A stretch of 64,000 bases of DNA, taken from Saccostrea cucullata (Eukaryota). Shown piece by piece: positions 45,666 to 52,281 of the stretch. The notes below the pieces were generated by a model, which was not told where the DNA came from, did not search any database, and saw only the letters and a list, made by a program, of their open reading frames with translations. The stretch spans positions 372,001-436,000 of the forward strand of contig NW_026931414.1 in NCBI RefSeq assembly GCF_032062105.1. The letters run 5' to 3'. A program made the translations under genes and the position numbers. Within the stretch, counting starts at the first letter, position 1, and each line of letters starts with the position of its first letter.

Positions 45666-46388
45666 AAAAAATTCGAAAGGGACGTTAACCAACATACAAT
45701 CAATCATCAATTTCAAATTTTTCCTACTCCCGTCACTTTTCAAACGTTGAAAGAATGGGTGAAATACGCTCTGCAAAATTGATGAACAGGTGAAGTCCAC
45801 ATAAAAAAAATTAACTAAAATTGTAATACAAAGTTGTAGCCCCATGACTCACTGTTTTTCATGAACAATGAAATCAGTTGTATTTCTACATGGCACAACA
45901 TTAGGTTTTCTTCCCTATAAGTTTCAATTCCTTTATAATGACTGGCCCAACATTTAGAGAGGACACATCACAAGTTTCAATACCTTTATAATGACTGGCC
46001 CAACATTTTGAGAGGACACATCATAACTTGTTCATAAAACACCGTCTACATAAGCGTTTGTTGTTGGGTCCAACATTTCTAGTTCAGAGTTGTCTTGTAG
46101 GAGTAAGCAGATTTTTAAAAAAATTCTGCTTCTAATTCTTCAATTTTGTAAATGTTTGAGTCCTTCGTTGAGTCAGGCATATCTGCAATAATTTCCTTAG
46201 CTTTAACAAGCTCAGTGTTTATTTTCATGATTTGTGCTCTTCTTCTAGTTTGTTTTTAAATTTGCTTGTTGATCTTATTCCAAAGGATGGGACCTTTTCT
46301 AACTGAGTTTTGATTAATATGTTTTTCTAATAGGCCTCTTTCATATTTTCAATGATATAAGCTTTTTTGCGAGCGCGCAAGCGACAAA

Positions 46389-46406
46389 GTCACGTGACAC
46401 CCGACA
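46389..46406 (+). promoter_or_regulatory. E-box-containing motif GTCACGTGACACCCGACA upstream of the transposase
   Basis: Mirrored at 51874-51891; function inferred. Confidence 0.55.
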
Positions 46407-46434
46407 TTCCAAGGCGGTCTATTTTGAATCCAAA

Positions 46435-49000
46435 ATGGTGAAACGCTGTTCTTGGGGCATATGTAACAGCGATAATAGGTACATGCATAAAGCATACATG
46501 AAAGGAGTGGAATTTTTCCCAGTACCAAAGCCTAAAACACGATTAGACGACACCAAACTTTGGGTAAAGGCATGCGGAAGAAAGTTTTTTACCGTTGACA
46601 ATGTAAACAAACATACATACGTATGTAGCAAACATTTTATTGATGGTCGCCCTACCGAGTTGCATCCCTATCCATTAAATGCCAATTCAAATAGAGTTAT
46701 TTCGAAAGGTAGAAAACGTGCGACAAGAAAGGACACCTTCACACCAGGAGATAAACAGACGAATGCCAATCTCGGCAAGGATGGATTTGTACCACACCCC
46801 GTGCCAGAGGCCTCCTTGTTTGTTACCGTCGAAGAGGAAGAAATCAGTGAAAAAGTCTCAACCCAGCAGCAGCTCACAGAAGGTAAAATATAATTCAAAT
46901 TTTGAATAAACTCACATGAGATAAACATGAAACATTCGCAGAGTGAAATCTAGATTGATCATAATTATGTGTAACTACAAGTGTAAATAGACCAATTTAA
47001 GCTAAATTTCAAAACATTACCGTAAAAATATTAAGGTTCCAAAATTTGAGTGGAAGATCTAGATAAACGCATTTCACTGAGAAAGAATGCACGACATGCA
47101 AACACTTACAATGAAATGGAAAAACCCAAAGTTATTTTTAGTCTAAAAAACATACTTTTCAAATACTGACTAGATTTCTAAAGGTTCCATAGGAATTTGA
47201 AAATAGAATGTATCGGCTTTTCAACTCGCACTCTGGTGTGTAAAAATGTCATTTAATATTCAAACAAAACAGCTGCTGTTCTTTTTCTTCCAGGCTATTT
47301 TCTTTGAGACTATATTACAAGTGGGAGTGGATCACAATTTTTTTAAGAAAATGTAAAAGAGGAGAGCAATTTTTAATATCAGCATCACAAAAAAATTATT
47401 GCGAGCTGATCTAACTTGTAACTTCAATTTCCAACATTTCAGTTGATGACCACTTATATGCTAAACCTGTGCAAATGGTTAATGTTGCCACCCAGACCAA
47501 CCCGGACATAGAGGGAATGTCAAGCAATGAGGAATCCCAGGATAGGGGGAATACAAAGAGACGCCTTCTGATGGAAGATGTATATAAAAATGACATGTCC
47601 TGCAAATTTTACACAGGTTAATGAACTTTGTTTCATGTGTAAAGATAATTACTACTTTTGATTGAATTAAAAAATTCTCAGAAATATCATTTTAAATGGA
47701 AGAGAGATAGTCTAAGGTTTGGCTGAAAATTAGTATATCTAATATGCATTTTAAATATATTTCTGACTTTGTACATACCTATAATTATTTGAAATCTCAT
47801 CATGTTACATTTAATAAACTTTGTATCATACTTTATATAATTATATAGTACCGGTACATCATGTAATCACTATCATTTAAGACCAGTGCTAGTTGTTCTC
47901 AGATGCCCTAGTTAATCACATTCTAATAAATAAATAATGTATTTATCCTTGATCCATACAGGTATAACATTGGCAGTTTTTACTATCATCTTCAATGTAC
48001 TTAAGATTAAGGCATCCTCAATGGTGTACTGGAATAGCACAGAAACAAATGAGCGACAGGATTCCAAGGTAATACAATGTCATTACTCTTCTTATCATTA
48101 TGACCCAAACAAATTTTCTGTGAATCTAATGTGTATTAATTTTAAAAAACCTGTAATGTCTATAAAAAATACACAATTAATTAATACCAACACAAAAAGC
48201 CACAATAATGATTGTATTTATTACTTTCATGTTAACAGACTCCAAGAAGAGAACCTAAACGCTTGCTTTCATTGAAAGAAGAATTCACTCTAACCTTGTT
48301 GCGACTACGAAGAGGATTTGACACCAAATCACTCAGTGATATGTTTGCCATTTCTGAAAGTTCAGTAAGCCGAATATTTACTACATGGATGTGTCTCATG
48401 AGCATTGACCTTGGCTTTCTCATCAAATGGCCATCCAAAGAACAAATCATGGAAAATTTGCCCAAATGCTTTAAACATTTCAAAAAAACAAGATGCATTA
48501 TTGACTGCACTGAATTCTTTGTGCAAAAACCCAGTCTTCCAACTGCTCAGAGAATAACATATTCATCTTACAAACACCATAATACCTTCAAGTGTTTAGT
48601 AGCAATAACTCCATCGGGTTCATTTTGTTTTGTATCTGATTTGTACACTGGTAGTATTTCTGACAAGAAAATAGTACAAGAATCTGGCTTTTTGGATAAT
48701 ATCGAGTTTGGTGATGACATTATGGCGGACCGTGGCTTTCTCATAAGAGGCGATCTAGCATTAAAAGGTGCAACACTAAACATTCCCCCATTTTCTTTTG
48801 GAAGACAGATGGGTAGCAATGCCACCACTAAAACGAGAAGGATTGCTCGAGCTCGAATCCATGTAGAACGAGCAATTGGACGTTTGAAAAACTATGCAAT
48901 TTTGCAAGGTGTTATGACTCTCCAGATGAAGCCTTTGTACAGTCAAATTGTAAAAGTATGTGCAATGTTATGCAACCTTGACTGTCAACTTGTGAAGTAA
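46435..49000 (+). CDS. THAP + HTH + DDE_Tnp_4-type transposase, 4 exons, ~496 aa, apparently intact
   Basis: Exons 46435-46882, 47443-47616, 47962-48068, 48239-49000 in phase. THAP motif MVKRCSWGIC..FFPVP..W..VCSKHF; FYTG; catalytic IIDCTE, MADRGF, RIHVERAIGRLK; AATAAA at 49041. Confidence 0.9.
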
Positions 49001-51856: not shown

Positions 51857-51873
51857 GTTAACTATAGACGCTT

Positions 51874-51891
51874 TGTCGGGTATCACGTGAC
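51874..51891 (-). promoter_or_regulatory. E-box-containing motif GTCACGTGATACCCGACA upstream of the nuclease gene
   Basis: 17/18 identical to 46389-46406; function inferred. Confidence 0.55.
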
Positions 51892-52281
51892 AATGTAAAA
51901 CTAAACGTTAAAACCATTCCGGGTTCAACGTTTTATGAAAGAGGTCTATTTTGGACAAGTTGGACAATTTCGTCCTTGATTTTTGTAATTTCTTCCATTG
52001 CTTTTTATTTCTCTAAATTTCATGAAGTTCAAAAGATAATTTTGTGCAAGTTTCTTCACAATTTTCATACCTCCCGCTTGAAAAGCGGCGAGGGTCTATA
52101 GTAATCGAGATGTTCGTCCGTCTTTCCGTACGTCCCTCCGTCTGTTACGCTTTGGGGTACCTATCTCTTATCCGCAACTCCTCTCATACCACTGAATGAA
52201 ATTTGATGAAACTGTCACAGAATCTTTATTACATATTGCCATTGTGCACCTCCTATTTTACATTTTTGATCCGACACATTT

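Follow-up and report, generated by a model that had tools for sequence, protein, structure and literature searches.

A stretch of 64,000 nucleotides from Saccostrea cucullata (assembly GCF_032062105.1, contig NW_026931414.1, positions 372,001 to 436,000; hereafter the window) carries a DNA transposon at 46332-51947. The element is 5616 bp long, complete from end to end, and almost certainly an ISL2EU (PHIS) transposon. It holds an intact transposase gene and a convergent nuclease gene that is broken by a stop codon. The best explanation, to which we give a probability of about 0.4, is a cut-and-paste ISL2EU element whose nuclease, when intact, would resect the broken donor site and thereby let sister-chromatid repair restore the element. 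That the nuclease is catalytically active and serves the element is very probable; the assignment of donor-site resection as its job is tentative. The element type has already been described, the window copy is defective, and the locus is ordinary.

Structure of the transposon and its two genes

The initial annotation of the window had reported terminal inverted repeats (TIRs) and an AT duplication at the boundaries, and both are present. The TIRs are 14 bp long, match at 13 positions, and are flanked on each side by AT (Table 1). Sibling copies at other sites, ~1-5% diverged, end at the same bases and have different flanks. AT flanks 13 of the 17 distinct ends of this family (family A, window included), and 12 of these 13 read AAT. 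The assembly contains 18 matches to the left end and 22 to the right end; these counts are lower bounds, and some pairs look like uncollapsed haplotypes. Empty sites with a single AT were found for two siblings. L035 is the empty site of L012, with its AT in AATT, and the L019/L013 locus is represented without the element by L109. The search gave no empty site for the window copy, whose flanks are both single-copy in the assembly and whose site was bridged by no run, or for the sibling L011, where the paralog L033 stops short of the junction. The L019/L013 locus exists in three states: empty in L109 (C18147), filled in L019 (C15845), and end-trimmed in L013 (G000:C2525).

The transposase had been described as an intact four-exon gene with D-D-E residues, which is what we find. 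Four exons joined at GT-AG introns encode 496 stop-free amino acids with the triad D332/D407/E453. Matches to THAP (PF05485, expectation value (E) 1.5e-8), HTH_Tnp_4 (PF13613, 4.7e-10), and DDE_Tnp_4 (PF13359, 3.3e-45) all lie above the Pfam cut-off. The PHIS signature has the form D(19-29)K(29)D(18-40)D(11-19)P(18-28)R(3)E (Han et al. 2014, PMC4122938). In exon 4 the signature is found at D90, K113, D143, D165, P184/185, R207, and E211, with spacings of 22, 29, 21, 18-19, 21-22, and 3.

The nuclease gene lies inside the same TIRs, has four exons, and converges with the transposase gene. Its λ-exonuclease-like motifs, noted earlier as SIDG and EVK, are S446-I-D448-G and E462-V-K464, within a YqaJ domain (PF09588) that exceeds the Pfam cut-off at E 7.8e-20. 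The initial annotation had also named SAP and SWIM domains, and these stand less firmly. SAP gives a weak Pfam match in the window copy (HeH/LEM, E 0.022) and in the homolog P0001 (E 0.034), and passes the cut-off in the intronless relatives L087 and L104. SWIM has no Pfam match in the window copy, where the finger is split over two exons; the domain is called from the C177-C179-C187-H189 motif and from a fold match described below. No Myb domain was matched by Pfam among the eight exon or ORF (open reading frame) translations. A Beta-prop_NWD2_C match on exon 3 (E 0.033) was rejected as noise.

The nuclease reading frame is interrupted at codon 116 by an in-frame TAA that a 3-bp insertion creates. 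The insertion is missing from all seven sibling stretches that reach across this position, and contigs of six runs lack it as well (X8, X5, X10, X3, X7, and X17). With its transposase intact and this one gene stopped, the copy deserves the description "nearly functional" that it had been given. It would need nuclease supplied in trans.

All six introns were confirmed as GT-AG joints in RNA runs. Raw RNA reads of X24 contain all six joints, three of them backed by 1-2 reads only. In contigs, X5 and X10 show six of six joints and X8 four of six, and joints were seen again in X17. X5, X10, and X17 were classed as RNA by guess only, but the spliced joints in them show that RNA is present. The transcripts in these runs lack the private variants of the window copy. 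One X17 contig skips nuclease exon 2, which is 156 nt and in frame, and the skip would remove the last two SWIM ligands. RNA contigs also extend from the transposase gene across the spacer into the nuclease gene (window 49000-49712), which suggests that the 3' ends of the two convergent transcripts may overlap.

An 18-bp motif inside the left end has a mirror copy, matching at 17 of 18 positions, inside the right end. The pair is a candidate promoter element or transposase site. Other families have mirror-image motifs ~60-75 bp inside their believable ends, at unequal distances at the two ends. The motif differs from family to family and stands just before the start of each gene. L078, L084, L092, and L104 share a mirror motif of the type ACTTCCGG, and L106 has another. 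These too may serve as a promoter pair for the two genes that read inward, or act as transposase sites. We take the motifs to resemble host sites of the E-box, ETS, and nuclear-receptor kinds, E-box-like in the window family and ETS-like in four others. The automatic TIR scan called ends at 21 of 41 loci, and about half of these calls are implausible.

Copies, related families, and comparison with known elements

The window copy carries 21 private substitutions and differs by 0.97% from its nearest sibling, L011, in keeping with the youth proposed for it. Family A has four full-length copies, the window copy included, and none has both ends and both genes intact. L011 is in the complementary state to the window copy: its nuclease is open and a 5-bp deletion in transposase exon 1 causes a frameshift. 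Both genes are broken in L012. L013 has both ORFs open, yet both TIR tips are gone; the allele lacks 11 bp of each TIR together with ~566 bp and ~300 bp of flank, and has a 1.67-kb insertion in an intron. The nuclease is open in L011, L013, L021, and L022. Family B is 72-83% identical to family A and has the same exon layout and the same subterminal motif. Domestication was considered and rejected on the intact ends, the dispersed copies, and the lesions in most copies. Other mobile elements of 0.8-5.3 kb sit inside L012, L013, L024, and L026. Run X7, which bears a second species label (organism B), contains the family with few differences over long pieces; it may be a close relative, a mislabel, or a transfer. 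The transposase of a sibling family is 100% identical to an NCBI protein from Saccostrea cucullata, consistent with an oyster as host.

A further family (L104:2900-7863 and L115-L126; the G000:C11757 family) is intronless and 4.96 kb long, and its TIRs start with GG. Its 13 copies are 99.6-99.96% identical. They encode a SAP-SWIM-YqaJ protein of 580 amino acids and a THAP-HTH-DDE protein of 488 amino acids, both full length in 9 of the 13 copies (8 of 12 besides L104). This family is very young and is a better natural test subject than the window copy. Other layouts occur as well. In L091, L096, and L105 the nuclease domain is nested within the transposase, between its THAP and DDE parts and on the other strand, and L087 has its genes in tandem on the same strand. 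The nuclease has a C-terminal PHD finger in L087:3594-5504 and L099:4086-5597. At L090:6829-7440 an ORF with a NADAR domain directly precedes a reverse-transcriptase ORF of a long interspersed nuclear element (LINE), between two YqaJ matches.

ISL2EU elements are defined by an AT duplication within A|AT|T, a THAP-helix-turn-helix (HTH)-DDE transposase, and a YqaJ domain in a second ORF (Han et al. 2015, PMC4482050). The window element shares the duplication and its target, the TIRs, the THAP-HTH-DDE arrangement, the D-K-D-D-P-R-E signature, the YqaJ second ORF, the animal host, and a length of about 5 kb (PMC4122938, PMC4482050, PMC9179366), and the ISL2EU identity first proposed for it holds. 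Its 14-bp TIRs fall within the published range of 6-259 bp (PMC4482050). ISL2EU TIRs usually start with GG, whereas those of the window element start with AG; we do not treat this as defining because the paper says "usually" and AG recurs in other families of this genome. The window element is 5.6 kb compared to a mean of 4.84 kb, each of its genes has three introns, and its nuclease is broken. A potentially active ISL2EU family has two intact ORFs (Han et al. 2015), a state from which the codon 116 stop removes the window copy. The compared parts of the ISL2EU descriptions make no mention of the SAP and SWIM domains.

Related systems differ in their partners and target sites. The PIF/Harbinger elements Ping/Pong and Harbinger3_DR share the DDE_Tnp_4 core and two separate genes, but they duplicate a 3-bp TWA and draw DNA binding from a Myb/SANT partner (PMC2836001), whereas the window element duplicates a 2-bp AT, carries THAP on its transposase, and has a nuclease as partner. 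Spy belongs to the sister clade of ISL2EU and also uses an AT-rich target, but it mostly has one ORF, inserts at AAATTT without duplication, and has no nuclease (PMC4122938, PMC11304231); the window element duplicates AT and has two genes. KolobokE is another transposon with a PD-(D/E)xK, λ-exonuclease-like nuclease (PMC9587614). λ exonuclease and LHK-Exo of the YqaJ family, and the herpesviral alkaline nucleases, resemble the window nuclease in fold, catalytic residues, and 5'-phosphate pocket. The window nuclease differs from these by its additional N-terminal SAP and SWIM domains, and its element has no annealase partner.

Selection on the nuclease and its possible role

The exon-4 search of the assembly gave 136 matches, of which 40 were fetched to spread over score groups. 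A DDE_Tnp_4-type gene lies within the fetched stretch at 38 of these 40 YqaJ loci; the two others are L083, at a contig end, and L090, where a LINE is present. Both genes also occur inside the same TIRs elsewhere in the genome. For trees, L083, L086, L090, and L097 were dropped as short matches, the window and three siblings were added, and the set, all from this genome, was collapsed to 28 families. Of 25 splits, 17 are common to the transposase tree and the nuclease tree (8 at support of at least 0.9 in both, of 15 and 12), and the transposase and nuclease distances correlate with a Mantel r of 0.74 (p 2e-4). The partner has been neither swapped nor lost, which does not imply that the proteins cooperate. 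Both genes are under purifying selection. Against four family-B copies, the pairwise Nei-Gojobori ratio of nonsynonymous to synonymous rates (dN/dS) was 0.15-0.29 in the nuclease and 0.10-0.19 in the transposase, both upper bounds given the decay of dead copies; for the transposase, dS is saturated in the comparison with L067/L069.

The active site is conserved in full. Residues W24, R28, S35, E85, S117, D119, E129, and K131 of λ exonuclease align to conserved nuclease residues; Q157 is misregistered in the alignment, and we take the conserved YxQxQ glutamine as its equivalent by inference. In λ exonuclease, W24 and R28 form the 5'-phosphate pocket and E85, D119, and K131 the active site (PMC7496540, PMC3239189). 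The catalytic and pocket equivalents are kept in 37-40 of the 40 genomic copies. Among the 140 wider homologs that cover the four positions E, D, E, and K, 133 retain all of them.

An AlphaFold model of the 50%-identical homolog P0001 (mean predicted local distance difference test score, pLDDT, 90; predicted template-modelling score, pTM, 0.59) matches LHK-Exo with Z 17.8 (root-mean-square deviation (rmsd) 2.7 over 178 residues), λ exonuclease with Z 17.3, and the Epstein-Barr virus (EBV) alkaline nuclease with Z 15.6. The middle domain resembles the SWIM region of ZSWIM8 (Z 9.5, rmsd 2.6, 99 residues), and the first 40 residues weakly match small SAP-like helical domains (Z 4.6-5.4); the SAP and SWIM matches derive from the whole model. 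An atlas search of the middle region returned hypothetical or SWIM-type clusters only. A role as cullin adaptor, which ZSWIM8 might suggest, was rejected: the match covers ZSWIM8 113-215, beyond the BC-cullin box at 71-111. The residues and the modelled fold predict that the nuclease works 5'-to-3' as an active exonuclease on 5'-phosphorylated ends.

We propose the following sequence of events, modelled on homologous proteins. The THAP/HTH-DDE protein would bind the ends, excise the element, and insert it at AATT. The YqaJ domain would digest 5'-phosphorylated double-stranded ends, with SAP tethering the nuclease to DNA and SWIM serving as a scaffold. The nuclease would then resect the donor-site break, the choice of DNA end being inference only. 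Resection would direct repair to the sister chromatid, restoring the element and raising its copy number. The trimmed L013 allele fits cutting at both ends followed by resection of the flanks, a single event that gives weak support.

The initial annotation had read the pair as a two-component system. Two genes within the same TIRs are confirmed, but this need not mean a required partner or a physical complex, since most Spy elements, the sister group, carry a single ORF (PMC4122938) and cgSpy is able to transpose in cells (PMC11304231). For Ping/Pong, a Myb partner is enough for precise excision, and no nuclease takes part (PMC2836001). Because these elements manage without one, the core chemistry of PHIS transposition does not appear to need a nuclease. 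An accessory role is therefore favored, since a nuclease that is retained and selected must add to the spread of the element.

Several points weigh against resection of the donor break. The host already has MRN/EXO1 for resecting breaks, and what a private exonuclease would add is therefore not obvious. Flank deletions also occur beside transposons that have no nuclease, and on the right side of L013 a 175-bp hairpin repeat could account for the deletion there. A single-strand annealing partner like Red-β was not found in the element. Physical linkage alone suffices for co-divergence, the 40 loci are a non-random sample, and the fold model is that of P0001 and not of the window protein. The transcripts, lacking the private variants, come from other copies or individuals.

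The strongest alternative, which we consider doubtful, makes the nuclease a requirement for excision: the transposase would nick the 3' ends, whereupon the exonuclease would load onto the 5'-phosphate at the nick, remove or trim the other strand or the flank, and so release the element. Near-universal pairing (38 of 40) and the invariant active site fit this scheme, as do PF20700 on some YqaJ homologs and the joining of a λ-exonuclease-like domain to the unrelated KolobokE transposase (PMC9587614). However, related PHIS transposases work without a nuclease, and the exact 2-bp duplication and exact ends need no trimming.

Two further roles are improbable, and to about the same degree. The nuclease protein could be a Myb-like helper whose SAP and SWIM domains bring the transposase to the ends or the nucleus, its nuclease chemistry being incidental. 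Harbinger ORF1 does bind TIRs and transposase (PMC2836001), 109-112 of about 129 homologs retain the SWIM ligands, and the middle domain resembles the scaffolding SWIM region of ZSWIM8 (PMC13083262). Yet conservation of the catalytic and phosphate-pocket residues equals that of the transposase triad, and the transposase already has THAP and HTH domains of its own. Alternatively, the nuclease could counter silencing, either by destroying RNA or stray DNA in the manner of herpesviral alkaline nucleases or by acting on chromatin. EBV and Kaposi's sarcoma-associated herpesvirus alkaline nucleases are among the fold matches, some relatives (L087, L099) have a PHD finger, and the two transcripts converge, with contigs overlapping across their 3' ends; the best fold matches, however, are phage-type DNA exonucleases, and SAP points to DNA.

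Least probable of all is that the nuclease stop is an assembly error and the window copy fully autonomous: the 3-bp and 6-bp insertions appear in none of the runs examined, but 21 further private substitutions are expected of a real ageing copy, contigs collapse multi-copy elements so that absence from them is no test, and the window insertion site is bridged in no run.

Donor-break resection remains our preferred reading. A broader form of it is unlikely as a whole, namely that ISL2EU brings a phage-type resection enzyme, turns cut-and-paste into net copy gain through homologous repair, and also drives both genes from mirror-image, host-type promoter motifs ~60-75 bp inside the ends.

Feature map, surroundings, and implications

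Table 1. Positions in the window of the ISL2EU element's ends, exons, motifs, and private insertions.
Feature	Position	Strand	Remarks
Left AT target-site duplication	46330..46331	.	Context AAT
Left 14-bp TIR	46332..46345	+	Starts AG; same boundary in siblings
18-bp subterminal motif	46389..46406	+	58 bp inside left end, 29 bp before transposase ATG; kept in family B
Transposase exon 1	46435..46882	+	ATG; THAP zinc finger C5, C10, C64, H67
Transposase exon 2	47443..47616	+	
Transposase exon 3	47962..48068	+	
Transposase exon 4	48239..49000	+	HTH_Tnp_4, DDE_Tnp_4; D332 at 48503, D407 at 48728, E453 at 48866; stop
Nuclease exon 4	49347..50207	-	YqaJ/λ-exonuclease domain: W357, R361, T366, S368, E409, S446, D448, E462, K464, Q502
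In-frame 6-bp insertion, exon 4	50070..50075	-	Private to window copy
Nuclease exon 3	50421..50538	-	
Nuclease exon 2	50888..51043	-	156 nt; SWIM ligands C187, H189
Nuclease exon 1	51312..51856	-	ATG; SAP-like domain; first half of SWIM domain, C177, C179
3-bp insertion giving in-frame TAA at codon 116	51507..51511 (TAA 51509-51511)	-	Missing from siblings that cover it and from contigs of six runs
Mirror copy of subterminal motif (17/18)	51874..51891	-	57 bp inside right end, 18 bp before nuclease ATG
Right 14-bp TIR	51934..51947	-	
Right AT target-site duplication	51948..51949	.	Context ATT

Tandem arrays flank the element, with ~156-bp units at 44516-45728 and ~168-bp units at 52437-53980. 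The ~168-bp array belongs to a very abundant repeat that starts near 52070. Broken ORFs at 28089-33585 on the minus strand look by eye like the protease, reverse transcriptase, RNase H, and integrase of a long terminal repeat retrotransposon, and 60276-60986, also on the minus strand, reads by eye as a LINE-type reverse-transcriptase fragment.

The function of the ISL2EU second ORF has been called unknown (PMC4482050), in agreement with the initial annotation, and the elements have been described as transcribed, their activity without proof (Etchegaray et al. 2022, PMC9179366). No functional assay of an ISL2EU nuclease was found in the openly readable literature; subscription papers, Repbase Reports, and supplements, which fall outside that scope, may already annotate SAP/SWIM or the window family. 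What the nuclease does and whether ISL2EU elements move are thus questions already posed (PMC4482050, PMC9179366), and our data sharpen the first of them: the nuclease is selected, co-diverges with its transposase, and has a full active site and 5'-phosphate pocket. The intronless L104 family, with near-identical intact copies in the same genome, is a ready natural reagent. If the nuclease does control repair of the donor break, ISL2EU would be a eukaryotic DNA transposon that steers host repair with an enzyme of its own.

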